Source of the DNA: Azolla caroliniana
Lineage: Eukaryota > Plantae > Polypodiophyta
Direction: 5' to 3'
Length of the DNA stretch: 64,000 nt
Assembly (NCBI GenBank): GCA_043228905.1
Contig: JBHGNT010000018.1
Location: 15,562,001-15,626,000 of the forward strand
The notes under the pieces were generated by a model that saw nothing but the letters and a program-made list of their open reading frames with translations, was not told the origin of the DNA and searched no databases. Shown here piece after piece: positions 5,947 to 34,318 of the stretch; position 1 is the stretch's first letter, and each line of letters starts with the position of its first letter. A program made the translations under genes and the position numbers.

Positions 5947-6539
5947 TGTCGCAAAACAGCGCTCGGTCACAAACCGAGGAATAGGATCAACTCACAGAAA
6001 ACGGGAAATACAAAGTGCACGAAGACAATAGAGAGAAGAGTACACAGGGTGTTTTACGTGGAAAACCCTAAATGGGAAAAAACCACGGGAGTCCTCAAAC
6101 TCCAACTATCACTATACACAGAGATGTACAATGGTGAAGCTACAAGACAACAACCTTGAGCTCACTGTCTTCGCCACAGGCGGCGGTAATACACAGAGGC
6201 GTCGACCTCTTCCTTTCTCTCTCTTTCTCTCTCGACTGCTCTCACTTCGCTCTCTCGGTTGAAAACATAAAAAATGAGCAACAACGTAAAACTGTTTGCC
6301 CTAAGTCATATTTATACGCATATGACTTTCGGGCTATTTACAAATATAGCCTCAAGGGCCCTTGGTAAACATATTCACAAATATGTCCCCGCATCCGGAT
6401 CTCGCTCAGGGTACATTCATCATCCGGCTCCGTAGCCGGGATCTTCATCATCCGGCTCCCTAGCCGGGACCGTAACCGTAACCGGAGTTGCCGTCATTCA
6501 TCTCCGGACATCCCATCCGGAGGGACCGAAATCCCAACA
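5947..6539 (-). repeat. 3' LTR of copia B (593 bp)
   Basis: Near-identical to 10654-11274 and adjacent to the PPT. Confidence 0.95.
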
Positions 6540-6550
6540 AACTCCCCCTT
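6540..6550 (-). other. Polypurine tract of copia B
   Basis: Minus-strand AAGGGGGAGTT directly before the 3' LTR. Confidence 0.9.
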
Positions 6551-9500: not shown

Positions 9501-10623
9501 CCTTCAGCAGCATCTTGCATCCGGTTGATGTCATCAGCCACACGTCTCCTATGCCGGCAATCCGGCATGTGCCTTCATTTCCCATCCGGACACAGCCGTG
9601 CTCACCGGCTGTGTAGGATGAGAAGTATTTCTTCTCCGGGGTCAGGTGGAACGACGCTCCGGAATCGACCACCCAGGTCATCTCTACACCGGCAAGGTTC
9701 AGCTCCCTCTCTTCGGTAATGAGAATTATCTCTTCTTCACTTGCCGCGAGTGCCGTCGTTCCTTTCCGGTCCTGCCCTCGCCGATCCGGACCTCTCCGGT
9801 CTGTGGCTCCCCGGTATGCACCGTTTCTCTCCGGTGACTTCTTCGAATCGGTGTCGTCGGCTCCGTTGTCCTTTCGGTAATGCCGACAATTCTTCCGGAA
9901 GTGCCCCGGCTTCCCACAGTGGAAGCATGTGGGCCTTCCTCTTGACTGCGACCGGGTCCCCGACTTCTCCCGTCTTTGCGGACTCCGGTTCCATTGTCTT
10001 CCCCGATCCGATTCGGTAAGCAGCATCTTCGGATCGGAAACCGGTTCTTTATCTCTCCGACGCGCTTCTTCGTTCAAAATGCTTGTCTTTACCGTTTGTA
10101 GAGACAAGTTATCTTCGGTGCAGGAGGTGCTGAGAGTCACCACCAAGTTCTCCCAGCTTTCCGGCAATGTACACATCAGAATGATGGCTTGCATTGCATC
10201 CTCCAACGGGAACTTGATCGCCGCAAGCTGGTTCACGAATCCCATGAACGTGCTCACGTGTTCCACCATATTCTCGCCGTCCCGGTACTTGAGGTTCACT
10301 ATCTTCCTCATCAGGGAGGTCCGGTTCAACGCATTCTTCCTCTCGTAGAGGCCCGACAGCTTCTTCCACATCTCATATGCGTTGGTGTCATTCGCCACAT
10401 GTTGTAGAACGCTTACATCGACATATTGCCGGATCGTCGCTACGGCTTTCCGGTTCAGGAGCTTCCACTCCGACTCTATTACCCCCTTGGGTATCTCGGC
10501 ATTGTCGATCGGTTCATACAGGTCTCGGACGATGAGAAGGTCTTCCATCTTTATCTTCCAGTCGGCGTAGTTCTGTGAGTTTAACACCATCATGCCCGGA
10601 GGCCCACTACCGCCGCCTTCCAT
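6550..10623 (-). CDS. gag-pol: Copia Gag-Pol polyprotein, 1357 aa (Gag, CCHC knuckle, protease, integrase, RT, RNase H)
   Basis: First ATG after the PBS is at 10623. Motifs CFHCGKPGHFRKNC, WVVDSGAS, HTD..FIDD..NGLAERMNRT, LLYVDDM, FTDSD and HSRTKHI occur in copia order. Confidence 0.96.
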   Translation of the reverse strand: MEGGGSGPPGMMVLNSQNYADWKIKMEDLLIVRDLYEPIDNAEIPKGVIESEWKLLNRKAVATIRQYVDVSVLQHVANDTNAYEMWKKLSGLYERKNALNRTSLMRKIVNLKYRDGENMVEHVSTFMGFVNQLAAIKFPLEDAMQAIILMCTLPESWENLVVTLSTSCTEDNLSLQTVKTSILNEEARRRDKEPVSDPKMLLTESDRGRQWNRSPQRREKSGTRSQSRGRPTCFHCGKPGHFRKNCRHYRKDNGADDTDSKKSPERNGAYRGATDRRGPDRRGQDRKGTTALAASEEEIILITEERELNLAGVEMTWVVDSGASFHLTPEKKYFSSYTAGEHGCVRMGNEGTCRIAGIGDVWLMTSTGCKMLLKDVRHVPEVRLNLISAGRLDDEGYTGSIRNGVMKFSKGSLIVARARKVNTLYLMNSRLCPEELNVAADTAGELWHKRPCHMSEKGMKRLADDNLIPVKHVHLGKCTDCLAGKQNRTYFHSRPPTRRSAPLELVHTDVCQVEAKSHGGAQYFVTFIDDHSRKLWTAPLKTKDQVLSVFKELHARVERESGKKLKAIRADNGGEYRGQFAEYCRSKGIRLEFTVPKTPELNGLAERMNRTIMERVRSMLAHAKLPKGFWAEAMSTAAYVINKSPSVPLDGDTPQKVWTGKEVSYRHLKVFGCLAYVHVAKDRRGKLDPKTRPCIFLGYGDDEFGYRVWDPVDKKIFRSRDIIFMEDKTLADWESEKKMKSSKSTGEDQLYEEQSRPARDRLALEDPAEDGEETEPAEEDETDIGTGPDPEMDSDEEETEEPVTEAPERRYPLRERRAPRRFPEPEHVLLTDEGEPESFEEAKLDNHSRRWLSAMQEEMDSLHENHTYELVELPKGKRALRNKWVFKLKPGDAGNPPRYKARIVVKGFQQKKGVDFEEIFAPVVKMTSIRTVLSIAASMDLEVEQMDVKTAFLHGDLEEEIYMQQPEGFEKKGKEHLVCRLKKSLYGLKQAPRQWYRKFDSFMTDEGYHKTQSDHCVFVKKFEGGDFLILLLYVDDMLIIGRDQAKIRMLKKALHRTFSMKDLGPARQILGMHIIRNRKKKQLWLSQEKYVTKVLHRFNMSEARPVGSTLPANCKLSSKQSPETKAEKEDMMKVPYASAVGSLMYAMVCTRPDIGYAVGVVSRYMSNPGKEHWNAVKWILRYLKGTTNVCLRFGSGKPELDGFTDSDMSADADTSRSTSGYVMTYAGGAVSWQSRLQKTVALSTTEAEYMAAVEAGKEIIWMKDFIRELGIRQEGYRLYCDSQSAIHLAKNAAYHSRTKHIQRRYHWIRERIEDKEFVLTKIHTDENGSDMLTKVLTPDKLEACRKRIGLERHPMPK

Positions 10624-10638
10624 TTTCTGTGTTACCGT

Positions 10639-10650
10639 GCTCTGATACCA
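10639..10650 (-). other. Primer binding site (tRNA-iMet) of copia B
   Basis: Minus-strand TGGTATCAGAGC, 3 nt inside the 5' LTR. Confidence 0.95.
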
Positions 10651-10653
10651 ATT

Positions 10654-11274
10654 TGTCGCAAAATAGCGCTCGGTCACAAACCGAGGAATAGGATCAACTC
10701 ACAGAAAACGGGAAATACAAAGTGCACGAAGACAATAGAGAGAAGAGTACACAGGGTGTTTTACGTGGAAAACCCTAAATGGGAAAAAACCACGGGAGTC
10801 CTCAAACTCCAACTATCACTATACACAGAGATGTACAATGGTGAAGCTACAAGACAACAACCTTGAGCTCACTGTCTTCGCCACAGGCGGCGGTAATACA
10901 CAGAGGCGTCGACCTCTTCCTTTCTCTCTCTTTCTCTCTCGACTGCTCTCACTTCGCTCTCTCGGCTGAAAACATAAAAAATGAGCAACAACGTAAAACT
11001 GTTTGCCCTAAGTCATATTTATACGCATATGACTTTCGGGCTATTTACAAATATAGCCTCAAGGGCCCTTGGTAAACATATTCACAAATATGTCCCCGCA
11101 TCCGGATCTCGCTCAGGGTACATTCATCATCCGGCTCCGTAGCCGGGGTCTTCATCATCCGGCTCCGTAGCCGGGATCTTCATCATCCGGCTCCCTAGCC
11201 GGGACCGTAACCGTAACCGGAGTTGCCGTCATTCATCTCCGGACATCCCATCCGGAGGGACCGAAATCCCAACA
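10654..11274 (-). repeat. 5' LTR of copia B (621 bp)
   Basis: Matches the 3' LTR except for about 2 substitutions and one extra 28-bp unit. Confidence 0.95.
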
Positions 11275-13353
11275 AATCGAGATAATTCGGGGACAACGTT
11301 GAAGTCGAGGGGGAGGCCCACGTGCTTCTATTGTGGGAAGTCAGGGCACTTCCAAAAGAATACTGACACTTTCGAAAGGAGAAAGGGGGAGATGATGTTG
11401 TAGAGCCGATGAAAATTCCAGACAGAAAGAACACCTCAACAATCGTCGTGAGTGAAGAGGAGTTGTTGTTCATTAGTGAGCCTAACCCCGGACCGAAAGT
11501 GCTTCTCATCATACAAGGCCGGAGACCACGGTCTTGTGAAAATGGGAAATGAAGGACCATGCAGAATCATCGGTGTAGAGATGTGTGTCTGATGACATCG
11601 ATCGGGTGCAGACTAGTGTTGAGAGATGTTCGACACATACCGGAAGTCAGTTTGAATCTAATATTAGCCAGTCAACTAGATGATGAAGGCTATAGGGGTA
11701 GCATCTAGAACGGTGTCATGAATTTCTACAAAGGGAGCTTGATAATGGCTCAAGCTTGGAAAACCAACACGTTGTATATAATGCATGCTCGATTATGCCG
11801 AAAGGAAGTAAACGTGGCAGCCAACATAACTGGTGAGTTGTGGCATAAGAGGTTGTGCCACATGAGCCAAAAGGGAATGCAGATGCTAACCGAAAAAGAA
11901 CTCCTACCAGAGGTAAAGAAAGTGCATCTAGGTAAGTGTGCTAATTGCTTGGGCGACAAACAGAACAAAGCCATGTTCCAATCGAGGCCTCCGACTCAGA
12001 GGAAAACCGCCTTGGAACTTGTACACATCGATGTATGCTATGTAGACGTGAAGTCTCATTCCAGTGGACAATACTTTGTTACTTTCATTGATGATTACAG
12101 TCGTAAGTTGTGGGCTTACGTGTTGAAGATGGAGGATCAAGTACTAAGTGTTTTCAAAGAGTTCATAGCGAGAGTCGAGAGAGAAACCGACCAAAAATTG
12201 AAGGCAGTTCGAATGGACAACAATGGTGAATACCGAGAGCAATTCGAGGAATATTGCCGAACAGAGGGAATCTTACTCGAGTATATTGTGCTGAAGATGC
12301 TAGAGCTTAATAGGCGGGCCGAAAGAATGAACCGGACCATTACGTGATAAACCGATCACCCTAAGTACCTTTGGACGGTGATATTCCACAAAGGGTGTGG
12401 AATGGCAAAGACGTTTCATATTGACACTTGAGGGTGTTCAATTGTCTTGCCTATATGCATGTTGCAATGAACCAGAGGGGGAAGTTGGACCCGAAATCTC
12501 GGCCATGTATATTTCTCGGCTATGGTGACAACGAATTCGGCTATCGGCTATGGGACTTAGCCGAGAAGAAGGTGATTAGGAGCCGAGACATCATCTTCAT
12601 GAAAGAGAAGACGATTGTTGATTGGGAGATTGAGAATAAGTCTCCAACTACCGAATCGAGTAAAAGTCGATTCGATCAAAATCGAATCCGAGCCAGTCGG
12701 CCGATTTAATACTCGGCAAAATCAAGAACTAATTGAAGAACAAAGGGAACCGGCCGAACGAGGAACCGAATTTGACTCGGCCGAAGAAGTTGAAGAAGAA
12801 CCAACCATGCCGAATGGAGGCCGAAGATATCCCCTTAGAGAGAGAAGGCCCCCCGGAGATTCCTGGATAGCGAATATGTGATGTTAACCGATGAGGCGGA
12901 GCCGGAAAGCTTCGAAAAAGCTATAAACGATACCACAGCTGAAAGTGGTCAAGTGCCAGGCAAGAGGAGATGGATTCCTTGCATGAGAACTACACATACG
13001 AATTGACCAAGTTGCCAAAAGGGAAGATGTTAAGAGTCTATTATTAATCAATAGACCAAAATAAAGTAAAAGAAGGAAAATAGATTGGATAGAAGAACCC
13101 GTTCCACCCGACCACCCCCGAGCTATGATCTAGACATAGCCAACCTACCATCGACGTCCCATACTGCCGGATATTAGGATGACTAATACCTTGGAAGAGA
13201 TTACACGATCATCGAGATGAAAGCCTAGCCCGCACCACCGGTGTCTAAGGCAACAACCTTCCAACGTAATGTGCTTATGAGGGTAGCTAAGCCTCATATT
13301 TATACCTTTTCCTAGTCCCCTTGAATAGATGTGCCTTTCTAAAAGGCTCTCCA

Positions 13354-21395: not shown

Positions 21396-22444
21396 TGACA
21401 GGGATAGTACTAGAGGCAAGGAGAATTAGTACTAAAGATAGAGGAGAAGAATACTATGAGAATTAGTACTAAGAAGGGAAAGAGTGTGTGAGAATCACGA
21501 GAGGGGAAGAGAGAGAGAGAGAGAGAGAGAATGATGACAACAAGAAGTATATTATATTATATGAAGAAGGATACAAGAACAACTAGGAGATTGATGTTGA
21601 ACCGAATTGGTTCTGAATAATGTCATGTGTTGGAAGAGCCACCATGGGAACCAATCTACAACTTGTCACCAATCGAGCTTGAAGTTCTTCAAGCCTACAT
21701 GGAGGAAATTTTGGCAAATGGGTTCATTCGACATTCGAAATCTCTAGTCAGCGCACCCATTTTCTTTGTAAAGAAAAAGGATGGATCACTTCACCTAGTC
21801 GTGGATTACCATGGCTTGAATAAGGTCACCATTAGGAATAGGTATGCACTTCCTCTGATCTCGAGTCTTCTAGAAAGGATTAATGGTGCAAAGTTTTTCA
21901 CAAAGATCGACTTACGAGGAGCATATAACCTCGTACGGATCCGACCGGGAGACGAATGGAAAACAACTTTCTGCACCTGTTATGGGCACTTTGAGTATAC
22001 GGTTATGTCGTTCGACCTTACCAATGCACCAACAATCTTCCGGCACATGGCAAATGATATATTCCGAGATCTTTTGAACATTTGTTTGATCATCTACTTG
22101 GATGATCTGCTAGTTTATTCAAAGACACAAGAGGAGCATGATTCTCATGTACTATTAGTGCTAAAAACTACGAGAACATGGTCTTTAATAATGTTCCAGA
22201 GTTATCTAGAATATACATGAATTTCTTGTAATGAAATAAAAAATGAAAATATTTTTTTTGTGTTACAATGCATAACTTAATGGTATGGCTTCAACTTATG
22301 TAACACAAGGTCATGGGTTCAAATCCTTTTTGAGCCATACCATGCCATATCATGACACTTCAACGCCAGTCTTAAGCCTTCTAGTTGTTCTTGTATCCTT
22401 CTTCATATAATATAATATACTTCCCTCTCACTCCTCGAGAGACA
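21396..22444. mobile_element. Rearranged gypsy remnant: LTR pieces related to the young gypsy LTR around an RT fragment
   Basis: LTR-like 21396-21626 and 22186-22357 (ends CATGACA like the young LTR). RT ORF 21627-22220 (+; IDLRGAYNLVRI, YLDD). Inverted LTR piece 22358-22444. Confidence 0.75.
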
Positions 22445-22946
22445 ATGCCATCAAGCATACTTCCAAGAGCCACGAACTAAAGGGTGGCTCTTTGACTCAT
22501 TAGTGACTCCCTCTCTCATGTATGCATCAGCGGTTTGGGCTCCAGAACTACCATCTTTCATGTGGACGCAATTAAAGAGACCATTGGTGATGATGTTATC
22601 ACGCCAACTCTGAAGCAAATCGTCAGTCCCACATGACATTATTAGGGTTGAGTTCGCTCTACTCCCGATGTTAGTAGAAGCACTTTTTCAACTTGTAGTC
22701 TTTATCCATAGGATACATAACCAACCACTTGATAGAATATCCCATCAAGCCTTTAAGGCTTCTCGAGCACTGTATGAGTCCGGCTATACTAGCTCATGGT
22801 ATGGCATGATGGTGAGTTGGCTTCTTGCAAACGGTCTAGACATTAATAACCTCCCCCCCCTTAAGTATGACCACACAACTGATAAGACTTTAATCTCTCA
22901 TGAGGACCGTAATAAAGTAATACGCCAAGAAATATGGCAAATTTAG
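22445..22946 (+). mobile_element. Non-LTR retroelement remnant (post-RT region)
   Basis: Translation LFDSLVTPSLMYASAVWAP...VPHDIIRVEF resembles the conserved stretch after LINE RT. Confidence 0.55.
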
Positions 22947-24494
22947 GAACTCGAAGCGACATTTGGCGAGACAGATGGGCGACGAATGGCACTCACAAAG
23001 CTTTATTCTTTCCAACAAGGCTCACGTCTAGCCTCAGTCTACGTCTTAGAGTTCCGTCAGATTGCCTGTGATGTCAGTTGGGATGACCAAGCCCTATACG
23101 ACCATTTCCGTCGCGGCCTCCAAAATGGCGTCAAGACCCTTCTCTTAAACTTCTCGGAGCCCATATCGTTGTCTCAAGTAATCTCCCAAGTTGTCCAGTG
23201 TGACAATTGTCTCTTCGAACTTTGTCAAGAAAACGGGGGACTCGCGGATCTCATGCTTCTTCCCGAAACGTATCAATCGCTAGGCCCTACTTGTCTCCCA
23301 CGCCAACCTTACCATCACCCAGTGATACCCATACCACGACGGAGGTCGATTTCCATACCCCGATGGAGATCGACCACTCTCGATTCCAACCACTAATTGA
23401 AGCCCAACGCGAACATCGTCGGGACAATGGACTCGGTTTCTATTGTGGCAACCCCGGCCATGTCATCCGTCACTACCCGGTGCAGGGCCCGCAACACCAA
23501 TTCCATCGTGCACATCTTGCGGAGGTTCCTCGACAATAGGAAAATGACCAAGTCTGGTTGTAGTAGGAGCCATGCCGCTAGACGCTTCCTGTTACTCACC
23601 TTCTCCATGCTCCTACAAGTCCATTCTGCCATTAGGAGGGTTTTCTTTGCATGTAAGTCTTTGTTTTGGTTCGACTTCAATAAATTCTCATGCCTTGCTC
23701 AATTCTGGAGCATCTACTTGATTTATCGATAAATCATTTGTCCGTGCACATAATATCCCCACCGTCCGCACATCACAACCCATATCCGTTGAAGTGATCG
23801 ACGGTCGGGTTCCCTCTTCGAGGGCGGTTACCGAAACCATTGTCCCGTTGGTGGTTCAAGTCAGTGCACACCAGGAAGAACTCACGTTCCACCTCATCAC
23901 AACCCCCCGACATCTGATTGTGTTAGGGCTATCTTGCTTGGAGACACACAATCCGATAGTGGATTGGTGTAACCGCTCCATCACTTTTCCAGTAAGGCCA
24001 ATTCCTGCTAGATCACGACACTCTCTTGATTCCGTTGCAGTTGAGTTCGGTTTGGTCGCTACATTGGCCATTGTGTCGGGGGATGTCACCGTTCTTGTCA
24101 ACAATTTACCCATCCGATATAGCGATTTTTCCAACATCTTCGAAAAGCGGAATGTCGATCGGTTACCAACTCATTGCCCCTGCGATTGCCCAATTGAACT
24201 CCAAGCTGGCGAGCATCCCCCATTCGGTCCTATCTATGGGTTATCTGAACCTGAACTTGAGGCTCTCCGCACATATCTGGCTGAGAATCTCGCAAAGGGC
24301 TTCATTCAACCCTCCAAATCACCGATCGGGGCACCAATCTTATTTGTCAAAATGAAGGACGGCTCCTTACGCTTATGTTTTGGATTATCGGGGTCCCAAC
24401 AAAGTTATGGTGCATAATCGTTACCCCCCGCCCTTAATTCCAACGCTCCTCGATCGACTTCGAACTGGGGCATATCTTCTCCAAGATTGACCTT

Positions 24495-25043
24495 TGTCGT
24501 GACTCTTGAGTAGGAAGCAGAGAGAGAGAGCGATGGCGATAGAGATAACGATAACGATAGAGATGGCGAGAGCGGTAGAGATAGCGATAGTGATAGAAAG
24601 AGAGTGAAAGAGGGAGAGAGTGCGAGAGAGAGAAAAGTATAAGTGAGAGATAAGAAATGGGAATGCGATTATATTATGAGAAAGAAGATTACAAGGAGTA
24701 GGCTAAGGGCTAAAGACTGGTGTTGAACCGAATGAGTTGTGATGAGTGTATGGACTCTTATTTATAGGCCCTTATAGAGTATTCTAGAATGTTCTAGAAT
24801 ATTTTAGATATTTATGAATAATAATAATAATAAATATAATCATGAAATATTCAAGAACATTCTAGAATAATCTAGAATGTTCTAAATATCTCGTAATAAC
24901 TAAACATATAATTATTATGATTACATCTCACATATGTTATTACAATGGTTAAAGTACAATATGTAAACCAAGAGGTTATGGGTTCGATTCCTGGTTCGCC
25001 AAGATGAATGTCATGATAAGCCAAGATGTATGTCTTCATGACA
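24495..25043 (-). repeat. 3' LTR of young gypsy
   Basis: TGTCG...TGACA, near-identical to 29869-30417. Confidence 0.96.
24931..25001 (+). other. tRNA-like (Pol III A/B box) module in the 3' LTR
   Basis: A-box-like TATTACAATGG at 24938, perfect B box GGTTCGATTCC 24981-24991, 43-nt spacing, ends ...CGCCA. Confidence 0.7.
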
Positions 25044-28000
25044 TTATCCCCCCTTTTCGATGACGAGTTGCACGAGTCGGAAGAAAAGAGTTCAGACTTG
25101 GTTTATGAGGATATTGGTTGTGAAATGCAACAACCATGTCGGAGGCATTGGCAAGATGTTCGGCAGGCTCCCATGTTCGATCATTAGGTGTATAGCCTAA
25201 CCAATCAACCAAGTAGTATAGTTTGTTGCGAATGATCTTGGAGTCGAGGATAGCGGCAACCTCATATTCAGAGCCATTGGAAACGTCAATTGGAGGTGGG
25301 GGACCCGGAATAGAGCTCGTTGTGTAAGGCTCCAAAAGTGAAACATGGAAGACCGGGTGAAGACGCATATGAGGAGGAAGATCAAGACGAAATGTCACAT
25401 CATTGATCTTACCACTTATGACATATGGGCCAAAACGTTGATAATCCAATTTGTAGCAAGGTCGGGTCGTTTTAATGCTACCTTGTAAGAGCCATACACG
25501 ATCGCCTACTTGAAATGTAGTCGATGAATCACGCCGATGACGGTCAGCAATCTTCTTTTGAGTGTTTTGGGCTTCACATAAATGATGCAAAAGCATATCC
25601 TGAACTTCTTGGAGTCGAGTGAGCCGATCTTCAGCAGCTGGGTTTTTTGGGAGTTCAGGATGTTCAAGCATCGTCCAACGAGGATGGTACCCAATGTTTG
25701 CAAAAAATGGGGAATATCCAGTAGAAGAATGCTCGGAGTTGTTATAAGCAAATTCTGCCAAAGGTAGTAAATCCACCCAATCATCTTGTTGATAGTTGAC
25801 AAAACAACGTAGATATTGCTCGACTATTTGGTTGGTGCGCTCACTCTGCCCATTAGTCTCTGGATGGTAGCCGGAAGAGAGTTTACAAGAAGTATGTAAG
25901 AGTCTGAACATGTGCCGCCAAAATTTCGAGATGAATTGGGGACCCCGATCACTGATAATATCATCCGGAAGACCATGATGGCGAAACACCTCCCGCATGA
26001 GTAAATCAGCTGTCTCGTGACTAGTAATGGTCTTTGTGCATGGAAGGAAATGTGCCATCTTCGTAAAACGATCGACAACCGTGAGAATCGAATCAAATCC
26101 CTTGGAAGGTGGAAGATCCGTAATAAAGTCCAAGGAAATAGATTTCCATGGGCTCTCCGGAATAGGCATTGGCTGTAATAAGCCATATGGATGATGTCGA
26201 GGCTTTTTTGATCGGCAACATGTATCACAGCTACGAACATAATCCGTAACAAAATGGCGAAGCCGTGGCCACCAATATCGGCGAGAAATCAACTCAAAAG
26301 TCTTGTGGATGCCGAAGTGTCCCGCCATTGGTGTGTCATGACATTGTTGCATGACTTTGAGTCGAGAAGGACCGTCAGGCACATACAAGAGAGTTTGTCG
26401 AAAAAGTAACCCATCATGCCAACTAAACTGGGTGTAGTCTAGACGAGGATTTTGAGTTTGGGAGCTAGATGCACGATTTGGGATAATATGGCTCAAAACC
26501 TCTTGGGCGAACGCATCAGTCGCAATCTGCTCACGAATGGAATCAAGAAGCCTTGAATCTCCCGGTGTGTTGATGGTATGCATTGCCATTATTCGTAGAC
26601 GATCAGGACCTAAGAGGATTTGCTTTTGGCTTTCAAATGCGGCCTCTCCAGGTTGAAGTTCCATATACGAACGTCTAGATAAAGCATCTGCTTTTCCTTG
26701 TTGCATCCCAGGGCGATATAGAATTACAAAATCGAAACGAGTTAAGAACTGCGCCCAACGAGCTTGTCGTCGATTCAAGACTCGAGCACTTTGAAAGTAT
26801 GTTAGATTTTTATGATCATTGTAGACAATAATCTGCTGAGAAGAACCCTCCAGAAAATGACGCCATTGTTGAAAAGAATCCACAATGGCAAGAAGCTCTT
26901 TGTCGTGAATCTCATAGTTGATTTCTGCGGCTTCAAATTTTCGTGAGTGAAAAGCCACCGGGTGCAGTTCACCATCATCACCAATTTGGGATAGTACACT
27001 TCCGAGTGCGAAATCCGATGCATCAGCTTCAAGTATAAAGCGCCTCATTGGATCGACATGGATTAAGATTGGTGCGGATGTAAATGCTTGCTTTAAACCC
27101 TCAAATGCAGAGTTCGCATCTATACTCCATACAAATGATCGATTCTTGTGCGTCAGTTGAGTGAGGGGCAACACAATTTTTGAATAGTCTTTGATGAACT
27201 TGCGATAAAAGTTTGCGAACCCCAAAAAACATTGCACATCTCGCACGGACTGTGGTGTTTGCCAATCCAAAATTGTTTGAACCTTTGATGGATCCATAGA
27301 GATGCCATTTGAAGAGACTATGTACCCCAAAAACTCCACTTGACGTTGGTCGAAACTACACTTCTCCAATTTTGCATAGAGACCATACTCTCGTAGCCGT
27401 TGCAAAACTTGGCGAACATGTATATCATGTTCTTCTTGAGTTTTTGAGTAGATCAAGATATCATCCAGGTAAACAATGATGAAGATATCGAGGAAGTCTC
27501 GAAAAATATCATTCGCCATATGTTGGAAGACTGCTGGTGCATTCGTGAGGCCAAAAGGCATCACTGTGTACTCAAAATGACCATAGCGAGTGCGGAACGC
27601 CGTCTTCCATTCATCCCCAGGACGAATTCGAACAAGGTTGTAGGCACCTCGAAGATCTAACTTCGTGAAATACTTTGCTTCACTGAGGCGTTCTAGAAGG
27701 CTTGAGATCAATGGGAGAGCATATCGGTTTCTAACGGTCACTTTATTCAAGCCTCGATAATCCACGACCATACGAAGCGTACCATCTTTCTTCTTAACGA
27801 AAAAGATGGGTGCACCAGCAGGAGATTTTGAATGTTGGATAAAACCATTTGCCAAGTTCTCATTGATATATTCTCGAAGAACCTCTAACTCCGTGGGCGA
27901 AAGATTATAAATTGGTCCCCATGGAGGCTCTTTTCCTGGCTGCAAATCAATTGGGCAATCATATGGTCGATGCTCTGGTAGTCTATTAGCCTTCACCTTA

Positions 28001-28668
28001 TCGAACACATCGGAGAATTCTATGTACTTCTTTGGTAGTTGGACCCCCAATTCTTGTGAGCTAGATGAGGGAGTTGCTAAAACCGCAAATACCATCATGT
28101 CTTCCTTTCTTCCATCCTCTCGTAATTGATGTATAGAGATTGTTGAAATTGTGGGGGATCCTAGATCCTTAGTTGGAGCTTCAAGAGACTTGGATTGTAC
28201 GGTGACCTCTTCAATAGTTCTTTTTCTCCAATCAATGGTTGGGTTATGTAACTCAAACCAAGGAAGACCAAGAACTAGAGAGTGCTCCGGACTACTAATG
28301 ATGTTAAATGAGATGACACTAGCCAAATTACCTAGGACTACACGAATTGGTTCAGACTCTTCGACTATATCTCCTGATGCTATAGGGCGACCATCGATGA
28401 CTCCTACAGCTACTGGGTTTGGGAGTTTTTTCAAGATGATGTTTTGAGTCAATGCAAACTCGCGATCCATGAAACAAGAATTGGCTCCAGAATCTAGGAG
28501 GGCAGAGGCTAGGGCGCGATGACCTGTAGATGTGCTAAGCTCGACTTGTGCAGAAAAAACTCTACTAACTTGATTTGATGAAATGGAACCACAACTAGGT
28601 ACTGACTCTACATAACTAGGATGGTCCAACCAAATGGCTCCTATTTTGGCCGGACTTATTCGTTTAAC
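25036..28668 (-). CDS. pol: Gypsy Pol (protease, RT, RNase H, integrase, chromodomain), probably expressed by -1 frameshift from gag
   Basis: LLDSGA, YLDD, EADASD, HDTPMAGH..CDTC, SLDF..SDRG..GQSER, GPY, and chromodomain YEVAAILDSK..YYLVDWLGY..TWEP. The frame is open back to the slippery site at 28662-28668. Confidence 0.95.
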   Translation of the reverse strand, partial: VKRISPAKIGAIWLDHPSYVESVPSCGSISSNQVSRVFSAQVELSTSTGHRALASALLDSGANSCFMDREFALTQNIILKKLPNPVAVGVIDGRPIASGDIVEESEPIRVVLGNLASVISFNIISSPEHSLVLGLPWFELHNPTIDWRKRTIEEVTVQSKSLEAPTKDLGSPTISTISIHQLREDGRKEDMMVFAVLATPSSSSQELGVQLPKKYIEFSDVFDKVKANRLPEHRPYDCPIDLQPGKEPPWGPIYNLSPTELEVLREYINENLANGFIQHSKSPAGAPIFFVKKKDGTLRMVVDYRGLNKVTVRNRYALPLISSLLERLSEAKYFTKLDLRGAYNLVRIRPGDEWKTAFRTRYGHFEYTVMPFGLTNAPAVFQHMANDIFRDFLDIFIIVYLDDILIYSKTQEEHDIHVRQVLQRLREYGLYAKLEKCSFDQRQVEFLGYIVSSNGISMDPSKVQTILDWQTPQSVRDVQCFLGFANFYRKFIKDYSKIVLPLTQLTHKNRSFVWSIDANSAFEGLKQAFTSAPILIHVDPMRRFILEADASDFALGSVLSQIGDDGELHPVAFHSRKFEAAEINYEIHDKELLAIVDSFQQWRHFLEGSSQQIIVYNDHKNLTYFQSARVLNRRQARWAQFLTRFDFVILYRPGMQQGKADALSRRSYMELQPGEAAFESQKQILLGPDRLRIMAMHTINTPGDSRLLDSIREQIATDAFAQEVLSHIIPNRASSSQTQNPRLDYTQFSWHDGLLFRQTLLYVPDGPSRLKVMQQCHDTPMAGHFGIHKTFELISRRYWWPRLRHFVTDYVRSCDTCCRSKKPRHHPYGLLQPMPIPESPWKSISLDFITDLPPSKGFDSILTVVDRFTKMAHFLPCTKTITSHETADLLMREVFRHHGLPDDIISDRGPQFISKFWRHMFRLLHTSCKLSSGYHPETNGQSERTNQIVEQYLRCFVNYQQDDWVDLLPLAEFAYNNSEHSSTGYSPFFANIGYHPRWTMLEHPELPKNPAAEDRLTRLQEVQDMLLHHLCEAQNTQKKIADRHRRDSSTTFQVGDRVWLLQGSIKTTRPCYKLDYQRFGPYVISGKINDVTFRLDLPPHMRLHPVFHVSLLEPYTTSSIPGPPPPIDVSNGSEYEVAAILDSKIIRNKLYYLVDWLGYTPNDRTWEPAEHLANASDMVVAFHNQYPHKPSLNSFLPTRATRHRKGGIMS
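25044..25058 (-). other. Polypurine tract of young gypsy
   Basis: Minus-strand GAAAAGGGGGGATAA abuts the 3' LTR. Confidence 0.9.
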
Positions 28669-29783
28669 ACATCCTCTAATTGGCTCAAGACATCAAATCT
28701 ATTCTCATGGCATGGGCTAGTAGGCTTAGTACTTAAGTTATTAGAAGTGATAGTAGAACTTGATGTAGGGTTGTCATGTGCACTTACTTGGTAAACTTGA
28801 CGCCTGGGTTTATGTGGACAATTCACAGCTATATGTCCTGGACCACCACAGTAGAGGCATAAGCGATGCGCCCGACGTCGTTGTTTCTCAGCATCTGATA
28901 AGGGCCCTCGACGTTGTGTCGACTCTATTTCCATCGGAGTGGGACCATCCCTCGTAACGGGTCTAGAACCTTGTGGCGGTGTGGCGACTATAGAAGCGTA
29001 TGTCTGTTCCGGTTGGCGGCGTAACATTTGTTGACGTTCAGAACGTCGCTCAAATAGGCGATTATCACATCGCACAGCTCGGCTAATAGCTTCAGTAAGA
29101 GACTTTGGATCTTCATGGAAAGTAAGAAGAAGATCTTTGACATCGTTACGCAAACCCTGACGGAATTGATCCATTAAGGCTGCCTCATCCCAAGGGATGT
29201 CGCATGCCAAGAGACGGAAATCTGCGGCATAAGCTGAAGCGGGACGATCTCCTTGTCGGAGTCTTCGAATCTTGTTTATTGCAGTCCTAGTGCTATCCGT
29301 ATCTCCAAAACTAGCTTGAAACTCCTTAACGAATGCCTCGAAATCCTCCAGTAATGGTGATTTCTTCTCAAGAAGTGGTGCAAACCATGCTAACGCTGTA
29401 CCGCTTAGCAAGGTTCCTATTAATCCCACACGGGCAGCATCAGTTGGATACCGATTGGGATGTAACTGAATCACCAAACGAACTTGATTCAGGAAACCTC
29501 GAAAGAGAGATCCGGTACCATCAAACTTGGCAGGGAGGCTAATCTTTGGTTCCCTTGGGGAGTTTTGAACCCCCGCCGCTTGTTCTCGTAATGTTAATAT
29601 AGTAGCCTCAAGTTGATGAACCCGTTGTGATAACTCCTCATATTGATGAGCTTTCTCAGTACTGACTTGTTGAAGATCCCCGAGTAGCCTTTGATTTTCT
29701 TGCTCTAATGCCACAAACTTAGTGGTGAGCATATCGAGCTCCGAAAGGACACGCATATACTCTTGCTTGCTGACCGACTCCAT
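28656..29783 (-). CDS. gag: Gypsy Gag, 375 aa (coiled coil, capsid, CCHC knuckle)
   Basis: PKISLPAKFDG, LRQGDRPASAYAADF, PTPMEI and CLYCGGPGHIAVNC. Confidence 0.95.
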   Translation of the reverse strand: MESVSKQEYMRVLSELDMLTTKFVALEQENQRLLGDLQQVSTEKAHQYEELSQRVHQLEATILTLREQAAGVQNSPREPKISLPAKFDGTGSLFRGFLNQVRLVIQLHPNRYPTDAARVGLIGTLLSGTALAWFAPLLEKKSPLLEDFEAFVKEFQASFGDTDSTRTAINKIRRLRQGDRPASAYAADFRLLACDIPWDEAALMDQFRQGLRNDVKDLLLTFHEDPKSLTEAISRAVRCDNRLFERRSERQQMLRRQPEQTYASIVATPPQGSRPVTRDGPTPMEIESTQRRGPLSDAEKQRRRAHRLCLYCGGPGHIAVNCPHKPRRQVYQVSAHDNPTSSSTITSNNLSTKPTSPCHENRFDVLSQLEDVLNE

Positions 29784-29855
29784 AACCGCGGGGGAAAAAG
29801 AAAGAAGGATAAAGAAGAAAGCTTGCTAGAGTTATTGGAGAAAGGGAAAAGAAAT

Positions 29856-29866
29856 ATTCGGTTCAA
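29856..29866 (-). other. Self-priming (Tf1-type) primer binding site
   Basis: Minus-strand TTGAACCGAAT, 2 nt after the LTR, complementary to ATTCGGTTCAA at 30107-30097 inside the LTR. Confidence 0.8.
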
Positions 29867-30132
29867 ACTGTCGTGACTCTTGAGTAGGAAGCAGAGAGAG
29901 AGAGCGATGGCGATAGAGATAACGATAACGATAGAGATGGCGAGAGCGGTAGAGATAGCGATAGTGATAGAAAGAGAGTGAAAGAGGGAGAGAGTGCGAG
30001 AGAGAGAAAAGTATAAGTGAGAGATAAGAAATGGGAATGTGATTATATTATGAGAAAGAAGATTACAAGGAGTAGGCTAAGGGCTAAAGACTGGTGTTGA
30101 ACCGAATGAGTTGTGATGAGTGTATGGACTCT

Positions 30133-30257
30133 TATTTATAGGCCCTTATGGAGTATTCTAGAATGTTCTAGAATATTTTAGATATTTATGAATAATAATA
30201 ATAATAAATATAATCATGAAATATTCAAGAACATTCTAGAATAATCTAGAATGTTCT
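30133..30257 (-). promoter_or_regulatory. LTR promoter: TATA box plus two heat-shock element arrays
   Basis: TATAAATA (minus strand, 30140-30133). Alternating nTTCn/nGAAn at 30155-30174 and 30223-30257, with copies at 24781-24800 and 24849-24883. Confidence 0.7.
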
Positions 30258-30304
30258 AAATATCTCGTAATAACTAAACATATAATTATTATGATTACAT
30301 CTCA

Positions 30305-30375
30305 CATATGTTATTACAATGGTTAAAGTACAATATGTAAACCAAGAGGTTATGGGTTCGATTCCTGGTTCGCCA
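30305..30375 (+). other. tRNA-like (Pol III A/B box) module in the 5' LTR
   Basis: Same as 24931-25001. B box at 30355-30365. Confidence 0.7.
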
Positions 30376-32547
30376 AGATGAATGTCATGATAAGCCAAGA
30401 TGTATGTCTTCATGACAACCTTCGGGGCACCTACAATTTGGTGCGCATCAAGCCTGGAGACGAGTGGAAAACGGCCTTTCGAATGCGTTATGGACATTTC
30501 GAGTACAAAGTGATGCCATTCGGCCTTACCAACGCTCCGGCCATCTTCTAGCACATGATGAACGATATTTTTCGAGAGTATCTCGATCATTTCGTGGTCA
30601 TCTACCTTGATAACATCCTAGTTTTTTCTTCAAACTAGGAGGAACACACACACCACGTATCTGGTTCTCACCAAACTCTGGGAATATGGGATCTTCACCA
30701 AAAGTGAGAAATGTGAATTCGATAGGACCTCTGTCAAATTCATGGGTTACATGATCTCCCCTACCGGGATCAAAATGGATGAACGCAAGGTAGCGGCAAT
30801 CACCGATTAGCCTCTCCCGACTCGGCTGAAAGAGGTACAATCATTTCTTGGTTTTGCAAATTTTTATAGACGGGTTCTCTTCCCTAGTCCAACCTCTCAT
30901 CCATCTTACCCGGAAAGATACTCCATTTCTTTGGACCCTTGTGGCACACTATGCTTTTAATGCCCTCAAAGCATCTTTTCTCTCCGCCCCCGTGTTAGTC
31001 CACCCCGACCCCGCCCGCCCTTTCCAAGTTGAAACCAACGCCTCCGACTTTTCCATAGGTGCGGTCTTGTCTCAGCCCGACGACGATGGCACCCTGCATC
31101 CGGTCGCCTTCTACTCTCGAAAGTTTACAACCCCAGAAATCAATTATCCAGTCTATGACAAGGAGCTTGCAGTTATCATCTCAGCCTTCGCCAAATGGCG
31201 ACCCTATCTGGTTGGGGGCCAACATCGTATTCAGGTACTGACCGACCACAAGAATCTCATCTACTTCACCATCACTTGTACGTTGAATCGGCGGCAGGCT
31301 CGCTGGTCATCTTTTCTCGCTAACAATGACTTCGAATTCTTGTTTCGACCCGGCGTTCAACATGGGAAAGCGGATGCTCTCTCTCAGCGACCCGATGACG
31401 CATATTCTCAACAATCACATTGTTTATTGCAGCCCGATCAACTACACATGTTCGCAACCTATATGTTGCATGATGATTCCTTGCTCAACGAGATCGCCCA
31501 AGCAACCATGTTGGACCCTTTCACTACTGACATCAGGGTGCACCTCAACAACCCATCCCAAGAAATACAAAGCTTGGATCTTAGTCACTTTACAACTCAG
31601 GATGGGCTACTCTATCGTAATCACCTCCTTTACGTACCAGCTGGCACATGTCACATCTGAGTACTACAAACTTGCCACGATGATCCTCTTGTCAGACACT
31701 TTGGGGTCGCGAAAACGTTGGCGTTGCTGTCTCAGGGATTTTGGTGGCCCCAACCTTGGAAATTGATCAAAGAATTTATCAAAACTTGTGACATTTGTGC
31801 TCGCTCCAAAGCGGCTCACCATCGCCCATATGGTCTTCCACACCCACTTCCAATTCCCAATCGACCTTGGGCATCTCTCTCCATGGACTTTATCACCGAC
31901 CTTCCTCGAGTCGGTGACCATGACACAGTGGTAGTGGTCGTCGATCGGTTTTCAAAGATGGCTCACTTTGTCCCATGTGCGAAAACCATTTCGAGGGAGG
32001 AGACGGCTGACCTTTTTCTAAAAAATGTCGTCTAATTACACGACTTCCCTGAGGATGTCACTTCTGATCGAGGTCCTCAATTTATCTCCCACTTCTGGCG
32101 CCAACTTCTATAGACATTCGGGACTTCTGTGAACTTGCAACCGTGCACCACCCTCAAACTTATGGCCAAACCGAAAGAGTCAACCAAATCCTCGAACAAT
32201 ACCTCTGGTGTACAGTCAACTACCAACAAGATGATTGGGTGGACTTCCTTGCCATGGCGGAATTTGCCTACAATAATAGTATCCATGCCTCAACTAAGGT
32301 TTCCCCATTCTTTGCAAACTACGGTTTCCACCCTCGTTTCAACATTTCCATTCCGGAGACATCCGTCAATCCGTCGACCGAGAGGCTTGCCCACACCTTA
32401 CAAGATGTCCATTGTGACCTCTCCCTCGAGCTTTGTGTCGTTGGAAAACAATATAAAGCTCACGTTGACCGACATTGCTTGGTCACGCCGACCTTCGCAG
32501 TCGATGACATGGTTTGGTTGCTACGTCGCCACATCACAACCACCCGT

Positions 32548-33539
32548 TGTCGGGGTAGTTGTGGTTCGTGCGGCGAAATCACAGGGACTAAGGTTTAAGG
32601 GGAGTTGAAGAAACTTTTATAAAGCTTGCGCACAAATGTTAGGAAGAATAAGAGTTCAAAGTATTGTGTGACAAAGAGACGAGCATAGATTAGAGACAAA
32701 GACCATATATGACTTAAGAAGCAAGAGTATATGATATTAACATGATTTATATTAAGAATATAAGATTTTACCACAAAGATTCAGGATAGAAGGAATAAAA
32801 GTTGAAAGTAATGTACGAGAGAGAGACGAACAATGATGAGAGATAGAGACAATGTATGATTGAAGAGGTAAGAAAATATGATAAGAATATGTATTATATT
32901 AAAAACCCAAGATTTTACCAAAGTTACAATGTCGACGACAAGATACGACTTTTCTTTTGTTGAATTGTAGATTTGAACCCTTGCCTCCAACTTCAAAACA
33001 CAAGACTCTTCCCAAATGAGCTAACTTGTTTGTTTGATCATATCATTTCTCTAACTTTCTCTTCTTGATTGATTCCCTTTTGTTTTCCTTTCCCCTCTTT
33101 TTATAAGTATTTCCATGCATATGGTAATGGCATGCATGTAATGCATGAGTTACATGTGATGCATGATCGCCATTTGGCGCACATGCATTGCATGTGATGC
33201 ATGATAGCCATCATGCTCATTTGAGCTCCCATGTATGAAAATATATATGGGATATGTATAATGATGGATATAACCTTAAAACAAATAACCTAGCTTAGTG
33301 GTGTATGCTTTGTGCTTGATGTACAAGGTTCAAGTCCCTCAATTTTACTTAATACAATATTTAAGTTTATTCTTATATAGTGAAGCACATTCTTGACAAT
33401 ATTTCTAAAAACAAATAGCCTACCCTAGTGGTATATACATTGTGCTTGGTTTATAAGGTTGTGGGTTCAAGTGTCTCAAATACTACTAAATACAATACTT
33501 AAGTTCATTTTTATATCGTGAAGCAAATTCTTCACGACA
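32548..33539 (-). mobile_element. Solo LTR (992 bp) inserted in the old gypsy integrase
   Basis: TGTCG...CGACA termini with 4-bp TSD CCGT (32544-32547 and 33540-33543). Removal restores ITTTR|PCTKLDYKKLG. Strand inferred from TATA and poly(A)-like signals. Confidence 0.85.
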
Positions 33540-33912
33540 CCGTCCCTGCACGAAGCTCGACTACAAAAAGCTAGGCTCCTTCCGTATCCTTGAGCGCATT
33601 AACCCAATCGCCTTCTAGTTAGCGCTTCCCCCCACATTTCGGCTTCACAATGTTTTCCACGTCTCTCTCCTCGAACCCTACCATCCTTCTCGCATTCCAG
33701 GATGACAACCTCCGCCCGTGGAATTATCAATAGGTGAGGAGTACGAGGTTGACCAGATCCTCGACTCCCGCTTGCGCCGCCGAAGACTTCAATACTTGGT
33801 TTTATGGAAAGGTTACCCTCTTTCGGACGCCACATGCAATTCGCGCTTTTCATCAACGATACCCTCATAAATCAGTCGCGGGTGTTAGGAGGCGGCCTTA
33901 GAGGGAGGATAA

Positions 33913-34318
33913 TGTCATAGACATATGCCACGGAGGAAGGTAGTCTAGGGATTGAACCCAAGACCTCATGGTCTCTATTGGACAACTCTACAAATTGAGC
34001 TACCTATGCATCCTTGTACCAAATCTAACTTCATGTAGTGTAGATTGAACATTGGAAGTTTCTAGCTTGCACACATTCTCTTGCATTCTCTATTGCATGC
34101 ATCATCATGCATTCTCCATTGCATGCATCCTCATGCATACTCTATTTCTAGCTGGCTTACATAGCCCTACCTTCTTGTATAAATACTCAAGTGTACCTTG
34201 ATTCTAATCAAGGTGAACAACACCAATTACGAATTCTATAATTTGAGTTCTTGTTCTTTTCCTCTCTCTTGTGTTCTAGTCTTGTCTTCTCTTTGCTCTA
34301 TTATACTTGTTTGTGACA
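33913..34318 (+). repeat. 3' LTR of old gypsy, with an antisense tRNA-like module at about 33940-34009
   Basis: TGTCA...TGACA after the PPT, TATAAATA at 34178. Minus-strand TAGCTCAATTTGTAGAG...GGTTCAATCCC. Confidence 0.85.

Follow-up and report, generated by a model that had tools for sequence, protein, structure and literature searches.

The closest described systems are the U3 Pol III cassettes of foamy viruses and the TRIMs Helenus, Cassandra and Ajax ('TRIMp3', Kojima 2024). The latter are short and non-autonomous, and their own RNA is made from a Pol III promoter, as demonstrated for Cassandra and presumed for the others (PMC10886601). Their autonomous partners are expected in that article to rely on Pol II LTRs lacking such a promoter; tRNA-like parts are said there to occur in 'not a few' Repbase LTRs, the analysis itself being restricted to TRIMs (PMC10886601). 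Pol III promoters of LTRs have been described as TRIM drivers and as miRNA cassettes of foamy viruses; neither role explains a promoter that is conserved in antisense at the edge of an autonomous plant LTR. In the literature searched we found no description of autonomous plant LTRs that carry a tRNA-type module in antisense; such LTRs may be contained in subscription journals, in Repbase entries or in the supplements on Helenus, which lay outside the search.

The window analyzed here is a stretch of 64,000 nucleotides of Azolla caroliniana DNA; a host gene assigns the genome to Streptophyta. Seven A-box/B-box pairs were located in its LTRs, all at the coordinates given by the original prediction (Table 1). 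Six of the seven have the tRNA-like spacing of 43-44 nt that had been claimed for them (43 nt in four pairs, 44 nt in two), the last one being spaced by 36 nt. Each LTR was also said to hold one outward-pointing antisense B box near its U3 end. This stands, at 31 to 65 nt in the window, except that the module at 33023 lies on the sense strand, in R and not in U3. The proposed distance of 30-65 bp fits the window but not a chromosome-1 sample: across its 76 module-bearing copies the B box lies 6-63 nt from the outer U3 end, with a median of 16. None of the modules is a tRNA gene. ARAGORN reported 0 tRNAs, the Rfam tRNA model gave 0 matches at E<=10 in the region, pairing of the outer T-stem is at chance level, and the six modules that were folded did no better than their shuffles (z from -0.99 to 0.98).

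Table 1. Features of the window, with A- and B-box positions, A-to-B spacing, distance from B-box end to outer U3 end and B-matrix score
Feature	Position	Strand	Remarks
Module in rearranged U3 remnant, related chromovirus family	22273..22326	+	A 22273, B 22316, spacing 43; LTR end 22357; 31 nt to U3 end; 17.4 bits; type as in clusters F1/F23
Young autonomous Ty3/gypsy chromovirus (Tcn1-like)	24495..30417	-	Inside RT of older element; TSD ACCTT
3' LTR, young element	24495..25043	-	
Antisense module, young 3' LTR	24938..24991	+	A 24938, B 24981, spacing 43; 52 nt to U3 end; 21.2 bits
PPT, young element	25044..25057	-	Complement holds TTTT at 25054-25057
Self-priming PBS, young element	29856..29868	-	11 nt complementary to R start 30107-30097
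5' LTR, young element	29869..30417	-	TATA at 30140-30133
Antisense module, young 5' LTR	30312..30365	+	A 30312, B 30355, spacing 43; 52 nt to U3 end; same sequence as 3' LTR copy
Solo LTR, probable non-chromovirus, Phygy-like gypsy family	32548..33539	-	4-bp TSD CCGT
Sense-strand module, R region of solo LTR	32969..33023	-	A 33023, B 32979, spacing 44; 7.5 bits
Inner antisense module, solo LTR	33291..33337	+	A 33291, B 33327, spacing 36; tandem duplicate
Outer antisense module, solo LTR	33421..33474	+	A 33421, B 33464, spacing 43; 65 nt to U3 end; 10.7 bits, B box without C61
3' LTR, old host chromovirus (second subclade)	33913..34318	+	TATA and self-primer
Antisense module, old LTR	33948..34002	-	A 34002, B 33958, spacing 44; 35 nt to U3 end; 19.0 bits; homologous to head of free SINE family

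The young element is 5.9 kb long with open gag and pol frames, and Pfam recognized Gag, RT, RNase H, integrase and Chromo domains in it (Chromo E-value 1.9e-11). Its two LTRs of 549 nt each show 2 differences, exact starts of this LTR were counted 193 times genome-wide, and the module of the 3' LTR, whose A box is weak, is intact in 29 of the 30 best-matching copies. The complementarity between R start and PBS indicates self-priming, which bears out the suggestion that no tRNA primer is needed, and the same layout was found in 4 relatives with paired LTRs (L123, L125, L130, L131). In pairwise comparison, named protein matches are 56-71% identical for amphibian and 49-59% for seed-plant sequences. 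Of 66 flanks of young-family insertions, 26 match the coding sequence of other retrotransposons.

The solo LTR probably belongs to a different, distant lineage. The Pol of its family is 20-25% identical to chromovirus Pol by pairwise comparison, has no match over the chromodomain and goes with a tRNA-type PBS. Phygy elements are described as having a 4-bp TSD with an NCGN preference (PMC6317226); consistently, 16 of 20 distinct upstream flanks of this family have a central CG, the other 4 having TG or CA. At least one antisense box scoring >=8 was detected in 28 of 30 LTRs of the family, the stronger box lying about 200 nt from the LTR end, and 21 of 30 have a sense box scoring >=8 at 420-600 nt. 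The idea that a single lineage keeps the module was thus not upheld: the four LTRs appear to represent two distant gypsy lineages, and the integrase tree needs at least 2 changes.

The arrangement is genome-wide. A sample of 90 chromovirus copies was picked via a chromodomain motif, 82 of them with a readable LTR start. A strict B-box core was found antisense within the first 100 bases of 75 of these 82 LTRs and on the sense strand of 0, and in 0 of 29 copia LTRs. With a B-box matrix built from 12 tRNA genes of the host, 66 of 82 antisense windows over the first 200 nt scored >=13 bits, a value reached by none of the windows in sense, upstream or at LTR positions 200-400 and by 2 of 1640 dinucleotide shuffles. 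The placement of the module exceeds chance. At >=10 bits the matrix also hit the sense windows of 5 of 29 copia LTRs, but these matches turned out to be G+C-rich repeats without G53 and A58. Its presence in 75 of 82 copies and the lack of a SINE body, tail or TSD inside the LTR mark the module as a fixed part of the LTR rather than a SINE insertion specific to one copy, in agreement with the original prediction. A 15-nt word spanning the variable loop and the B box has 4560 exact matches in the genome, about half of the first 30 being at LTR ends.

The module occurs in two chromovirus subclades and in the non-chromovirus family, and the same LTR slot is held by different module types. On the integrase tree one subclade of 15 rows carries it in every row, and the label 'no module' takes 2 changes. 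A clade made up of F24, F27 and L351 retains just an ATTCRA remnant of the box, and L348 is boxless. The more distant relatives seen in metagenome contigs have no module; two metagenome loci (<53% identity) scoring 14.5 at 145 nt lack A58 and were not counted as modules.

Conservation was measured on 21 LTR clusters, between which integrase identity has a median of about 50%. Columns G53, T54, T55, A58 and G46 have an identity of 1.0, and C56 and G52 one of 0.9, compared to 0.28 at N59 and 0.33 in U3 further in; as the B matrix also picked the anchor, the B-column values are to some extent circular. The A box was measured independently of that anchor: 14 of 21 clusters have TR..GG where tRNA spacing would put it, as compared to 0-2 in 12 controls with a shifted position, A boxes being weak in several families. 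The claim that the boxes are better conserved than the adjoining U3 was thereby supported. The outer three T-stem pairs are paired in 0.44 of cells, whereas the shuffled value is 0.51 and that of host tRNAs 1.0, so that mimicry of the T arm by an RNA was rejected. Bases contacted by TFIIIC and the distance to the A box have been preserved; neither the U3 next to them nor the tRNA stem pairing has. Since the DNA boxes are retained and the RNA fold is lost, these data point to a Pol III promoter at the DNA level rather than to a tRNA mimic.

At 76-91% identity, one type of module resembles the head of a free SINE family; the two have only this head in common, and it ends at the LTR terminus. For the old LTR the local alignment with the SINE head scores 88 (shuffle maximum 27). 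The free family has a tRNA-like head with A and B boxes, a defined 5' end, an A-rich tail and variable TSDs, as expected of a tRNA-derived SINE; 20 of 30 loci are full length, with 159-236 nt to the tail, and 8 of 20 are flanked by direct repeats of >=8 nt (simple repeats excluded), some of them GA-rich. The outer module of the solo LTR matches 19 of 21 nt in the A-box region of the SINE's inverted 3' module, a marginal match whose score of 34 is just above the highest shuffle score, 33. Modules of the 15-row subclade have no match beyond the generic boxes among the 30 SINE loci. Exchange with SINEs was thus part of the history of the module, and the SINE-head homology together with the module-less sister lineages indicates that it was gained or lost more than once.

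Our preferred reading, which we put forward tentatively and at somewhat less than an even chance, is that a tRNA/SINE-derived type-2 Pol III promoter has been fixed antisense at the outer U3 of both LTRs, where it is likely bound by TFIIIC and would act as a barrier protecting the 5' LTR with its Pol II promoter. In yeast, tDNAs reportedly act as chromatin barriers. TFIIIC binds B boxes, often at chromatin boundaries, according to a study of mouse and not of plants (PMC8136502), and chromodomains are described as steering integration into heterochromatin (PMC7466625). Judging from its boxes, the module at the outer U3 edge would be bound by host TFIIIC and, by analogy with such boundaries, could form a portable chromatin barrier against silencing spreading from flanking DNA, keeping the 5' LTR promoter shielded. 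In the chromovirus families the TATA lies about 160-215 nt from the B box; the outward orientation would put any TFIIIB on this inner side, and any Pol III read-through would head away from the element's own transcript. We infer purifying selection on the boxes (or their repeated refreshing), TFIIIC binding and barrier function. With lower confidence, it is possible that two distant gypsy lineages repeatedly recruited tRNA/SINE boxes as an outward-facing TFIIIC barrier, an anti-silencing device that elements entering heterochromatin carry with them; it would have produced thousands of TFIIIC sites across a plant genome and swapped parts with a SINE family bearing two convergent promoters. The weak A boxes of several families, the clade with the ATTCRA remnant alone and the boxless L348 count against a barrier. 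Copia elements are more numerous (8020 versus 3738 motif matches) and entirely without the module, which is therefore not required to thrive in this genome.

It is rather unlikely that the promoter is active and that its antisense transcript is the function, running from the 3' LTR over the PPT and the end of the chromodomain and tuning expression, feeding small RNAs or occluding read-through. The A box at tRNA spacing agrees with such a transcript, as a TFIIIC site made of a B box only would not need it, and so do the identity of one module type with a SINE head and the Pol III RNAs that foamy viruses produce from U3 (PMC3993851). RNA structure is not conserved, however, and no terminator is shared. 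The original prediction let a short antisense RNA end at the TTTT run opposite the PPT; this run is real but family-specific: 12 of 76 copies have TTTT <=30 nt beyond the LTR end, and 6 of 21 cluster representatives lack it for 150 nt.

The module may also be a near-neutral relic, which we consider unlikely: reverse transcriptase would repeatedly copy co-packaged tRNA or SINE RNA at the start of the plus strand, and the boxes, refreshed from host Pol III RNAs, would only seem conserved. Capture during plus-strand synthesis would itself yield both position and orientation, and this weakens the argument that the same place means selection. The SINE-head type ending at the LTR terminus, the 2 tree changes and the existence of module-less lineages go in the same direction. 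The 15-row subclade does not, with all its rows module-bearing, no SINE match past the generic boxes, and stems and middles that have diverged while the boxes have not; nor does the copia of the same genome, which show no module.

An action of the box on unintegrated cDNA, with TFIIIC beside the U3 attachment end tethering or chaperoning the preintegration complex or protecting the end, appears improbable. The constant proximity of the B box to the DNA end would suit it, as would cluster F3, in which the box forms a perfect hairpin with the terminal bases; however, the 66 flanks of young-family insertions show no bias to strong B boxes, and the non-chromovirus family has its stronger box far from the end.

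Pairing at the RNA level, with the module as the 3' half of a bipartite primer-binding site contacting the T-psi-C and D arms of the primer or the self-primer, has a model in the U3 of Ty3 (PMC5371799), and the self-primer of one subclade includes GGTTCAA, which matches the box core. Box and primer nevertheless do not covary: the other subclade keeps the box though its primer is GGTGAACAAC, and the PBS of the tRNA-primed family implies A62 (so T52) in the primer where the modules have G52, which largely refutes a second primer site and leaves this reading very improbable. A landing pad drawing tRNA-targeting retrotransposons upstream of the module is just as remote: 12 of 95 distinct module-bearing LTRs match a relative over <300 nt (4 are singletons; the others break at a distance of 17-264 nt that they do not have in common), the apparent self-nesting of the 5 among 66 young flanks that are in an LTR is mostly inverted or tandem end rearrangements, and 0 library LTRs lie upstream of 12 tRNA loci.

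The TFIIIC-barrier reading bears on how chromoviruses that target heterochromatin remain expressible after insertion. Thousands of natural intact and mutated boxes make the function of the module directly testable, and with it whether plant TFIIIC barriers operate. In genomes of this kind, the number of predicted tRNAs may also be too high because of the modules.

Among known systems, the Tcn1 clade of Tf1/sushi chromoviruses has a chromodomain, self-priming and a 5-bp TSD, as here; the portions of PMC6317226 and PMC2864245 that treat it describe no tRNA-like LTR module ('tRNA-like' has 0 occurrences in PMC6317226). The bipartite PBS of Ty3 is complementary to tRNA arms near the U3 start and tracks the primer tRNA (PMC5371799), whereas the elements studied here are self-primed or have a box that mismatches the primer. 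TFIIIC-bound tDNA, ETC and SINE barriers are likewise centred on B boxes at a domain edge, but those covered in PMC8136502 are host loci or SINEs, not built into an LTR, and a similar function here would be by analogy. The U3 cassettes of simian foamy virus, as presented in PMC3993851, are likewise Pol III A/B-box units in the U3 of an autonomous retroelement; they encode miRNA hairpins with terminators, whereas here neither fold nor terminator is conserved. The resemblance to TRIMp3 lies in a small-RNA-derived sequence with conserved boxes in both LTRs: Helenus is described as having a tRNA-derived sequence fixed in both, with boxes A and B most conserved, not a functional tRNA and with a proposed SINE origin (PMC10886601). 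Unlike TRIMp3, the carriers here are autonomous, 5.9 kb long, with open gag and pol and with a TATA and a self-primer that mark a Pol II start. Their Pol III promoter does not face in the direction of the element's transcription (75 of 82 antisense, 0 sense) and is unable to produce the genomic RNA from its antisense position at the U3 end.

All seven tRNA-type A-box/B-box pairs (type-2 Pol III promoter boxes, hereafter modules) of the original prediction were recovered inside gypsy LTRs, with an A-to-B spacing of 43-44 nt in six; a tRNA gene identity was ruled out for all seven. As had also been claimed, every LTR carries one outward-pointing antisense B box near its U3 edge, ending 31-65 nt from the outer U3 end.

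Elements of the nested block carrying the modules, on contig C18 of the 523 Mb genome
Feature	Position in window	Strand	Remarks
Rearranged U3 remnant of a related chromovirus family	end at 22357		
Young element (Tcn1-like chromovirus)	24495-30417	-	549-nt LTRs with 2 differences; TSD ACCTT; inserted in RT of the old chromovirus
Solo LTR (Phygy-like family)	32548-33539		TSD CCGT; inserted in integrase of the old chromovirus
Old chromovirus 3' LTR	33913-34318	+	element interrupted twice: in RT by the young element, in integrase by the solo LTR

Judging by a host gene, the genome falls in Streptophyta. In the young element the gag and pol frames are both open, and RT, RNase H, integrase and chromodomain are all encoded. 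It was thought not to need a tRNA primer, and it is self-primed, its PBS being complementary to 11 nt directly 3' of TATA, as expected of the Tcn1 / Tf1-sushi group from the available part of PMC6317226. The self-primer of one chromovirus subclade contains the B-box core GGTTCAA and the other subclade uses GGTGAACAAC (window 30107-30097 + 29856-29868). An inverted repeat of the terminal 8 nt of the young LTR lies about 25 nt further inward. An additional U3 piece, in inverted orientation and joined in the palindromic TTCTAGAA region, forms the end of several young elements (loci L451-L457, at G000:C7:5928494-5934643, C7:16.68-16.69 Mb, C9:16.16 Mb and C10:16.29 Mb, and L482). At L451 and L452 a single TSD, CTGAG, encloses the whole structure including this additional piece, so what integrated there appears to have been an aberrant cDNA bearing two U3 ends.

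In the remnant, a minus-strand U3 end adjoins a plus-strand R-U5 piece (window 22190-22445), and a 46-nt inverted copy lies at 21544-21589 (window 21500-21625). Between the remnant and the old gag, window 22446-22900 resembles, when read by eye, a LINE-type C-terminal coding fragment. A young copia element (window 5947-11276) has an open frame of 1382 aa and LTR blocks of 100% identity, shifted by a length difference of 28 nt; GGTTCRA is absent from its LTRs.

Chromoviruses were sampled by a chromodomain motif (3738 genome matches), without reference to the module. Among the first 100 matches listed, all on contig C1, 90 copies were examined (rows 1-92 minus one close duplicate and one skipped row); the 82 with a readable PPT/LTR junction were kept and the other 8 left out. 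Within the first 100 nt, a strict B core was detected on the antisense strand of 75 of the 82 LTRs and on the sense strand of none, and on neither strand of 29 copia LTRs (30 loci, one without PPT, representing only about four families). A B-box matrix trained on 12 host tRNA genes reached at least 13 bits in 66/82 chromovirus LTRs, in none of four control windows and in 2 of 1640 shuffles. In a second sample, which overlaps the first and takes 30 of 443 matches to the PPT junction, 27/30 scored at least 7 bits. Among the misses, L288/L042 show a U3 deletion, L255 has a copia element inserted in its LTR, and a clade of two copies retains just a remnant. In one module-less clade (L286, L290, L351) a hairpin resembling ATTCRA(G/C)TC persists close to the U3 end and may be a B box in decay. 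The LTR module is a real feature with strong sequence support; its function we infer.

Clustering of the 82 copies gave 27 clusters, which fall into two integrase subclades; pairwise identity is 52% at the median. A box is present in 21 of the clusters, and their column identity (tRNA numbering) was 1.0 at G53, T54, T55, A58 and G46, 0.9 at C56 and G52, 0.82 at C61 and 0.28 at N59, compared with 0.33 for U3 further in, the conservation of the B columns being partly circular because the B-box matrix set the anchor. Free of this circularity, an A box TR..GG stood at tRNA spacing in 14/21 clusters versus 0-2 in shifted controls. The outer three T-stem pairs were at chance (0.44 versus 0.51 shuffled; 1.0 in host tRNAs). 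With boxes conserved and T-stem pairing at chance, it is the promoter letters that are kept and not the RNA fold. In cluster F3 (L063, L270), the terminal LTR bases close a perfect hairpin of 8 bp that has the B box as its loop.

The family of the solo LTR is probably not a chromovirus one: its PBS is of tRNA type, its identity to chromovirus Pol is 20-25%, and its target sites are 4-bp NCGN (CG in 16/20 flanks). Such features are described for Phygy in the available part of PMC6317226. Of the 30 LTRs that match the solo LTR best, a selection favouring close copies, 28 carry an antisense box. A non-coding Phygy-like derivative (L140, G000:C12:14168200-14172900) keeps its modules, and no protein match was obtained in the ~2.1 kb between its 850-nt LTRs.

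On a 39-row tree, in which L344 was entered as module-bearing by eye though its score was 3.7, the 'no module' label changes twice (once in 0% of bootstrap trees) and the module-less lineages lie inside one integrase subclade. Two changes, together with a module in a non-chromovirus family, imply that the module arose at least twice and, in addition, either arose a third time or was lost. Metagenome contigs yielded 80 related loci, with the junction present in 34: 8 of the 14 relatives at 53% identity or more scored at least 10, and below 53% one true module was found among 20. Every positive comes from a single assembly series, and some match families of this genome almost perfectly, so a wide host range is not shown.

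The converse search, with a 15-nt variable-loop and B-box word, gave 4560 genome matches (control 0). Of the first 30 loci, 16 were chromovirus LTR ends and one was a tRNA-Ile gene; the 13 others were mostly a free SINE-like family (L311-L340, e.g. G000:C1:2328161) of ~200 nt with 693 exact 18-mer matches genome-wide. Its 5' end is fixed and its tail A-rich, and 8/20 full copies show TSD-like repeats. Two tRNA-type modules converge within it: the head, in sense orientation, and, near the tail, an inverted A/B module (B score at least 10 in 16/20 full copies). Its copies often lie in (GA)n runs, sometimes in tandem. Of the module types, only that of the old LTR (clusters F8, F9, F10, F14, F16) matches the head, at 76-91% identity, and the similarity ends at the LTR terminus; young and remnant types do not match this family beyond generic boxes. 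Genes for tRNA-Lys(TTT) and tRNA-Ile(TAT) stand in tandem arrays, many of the copies being variants, at G000:C5:17.99-18.02 Mb and C2:20.108-20.110 Mb, and a tRNA family search returned 58,716 rough first-look candidates.

The module is probably under selection as a site for TFIIIC or Pol III, of whatever kind. On the best reading, which is more tentative, it may be a TFIIIC site that works as a barrier protecting the Pol II promoter lying deeper in the LTR, as its boxes are kept as DNA, at the outer edge, facing out, in elements expected to be sent into heterochromatin. The chromodomain would send chromoviruses into heterochromatin, as expected from the available part of PMC7466625, TFIIIC would bind the outward-facing boxes at the LTR edge, and it would there shield the inner promoter; TFIIIC is found at chromatin boundaries (PMC8136502, in part). 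Retrotransposon coding sequence is matched by 26/66 young-family insertion flanks. Against a barrier, copia elements thrive in the same genome and sister lineages persist, both without the module. It also counts against a barrier that copying of a co-packaged Pol III RNA at the plus-strand start could plausibly, with no selection, put a module in this position and orientation. That the module makes an antisense transcript is unlikely; the TTTT terminator put forward for such an RNA is no general feature and is family-specific, with TTTT no more than 30 nt beyond the LTR end in 12/76 copies. We consider a near-neutral refreshed relic slightly more doubtful still, and a role at the cDNA end the least probable of these. 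A bipartite primer site like that of Ty3 (PMC5371799, in part) fails since box and primer do not covary, and a landing pad for insertions was not supported by the 95 target LTRs, 66 insertion flanks or 12 tRNA loci examined.

No description of such an LTR module was found in the literature outside subscription papers, Repbase and supplements; it goes unmentioned in the available parts of PMC2864245 and PMC9033089, and that of PMC7466625 contains no occurrence of tRNA, polymerase III or SINE. Kojima 2024 (PMC10886601), in its accessible part, mentions other tRNA-like LTRs in Repbase without analysis and expects autonomous partners to lack the small-RNA promoter. Foamy viruses also carry Pol III cassettes in U3, but these produce miRNAs (PMC3993851, in part). 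Helenus and Cassandra resemble the gypsy LTRs in bearing small-RNA promoters, but unlike the gypsy carriers they are short, non-autonomous and self-transcribing.
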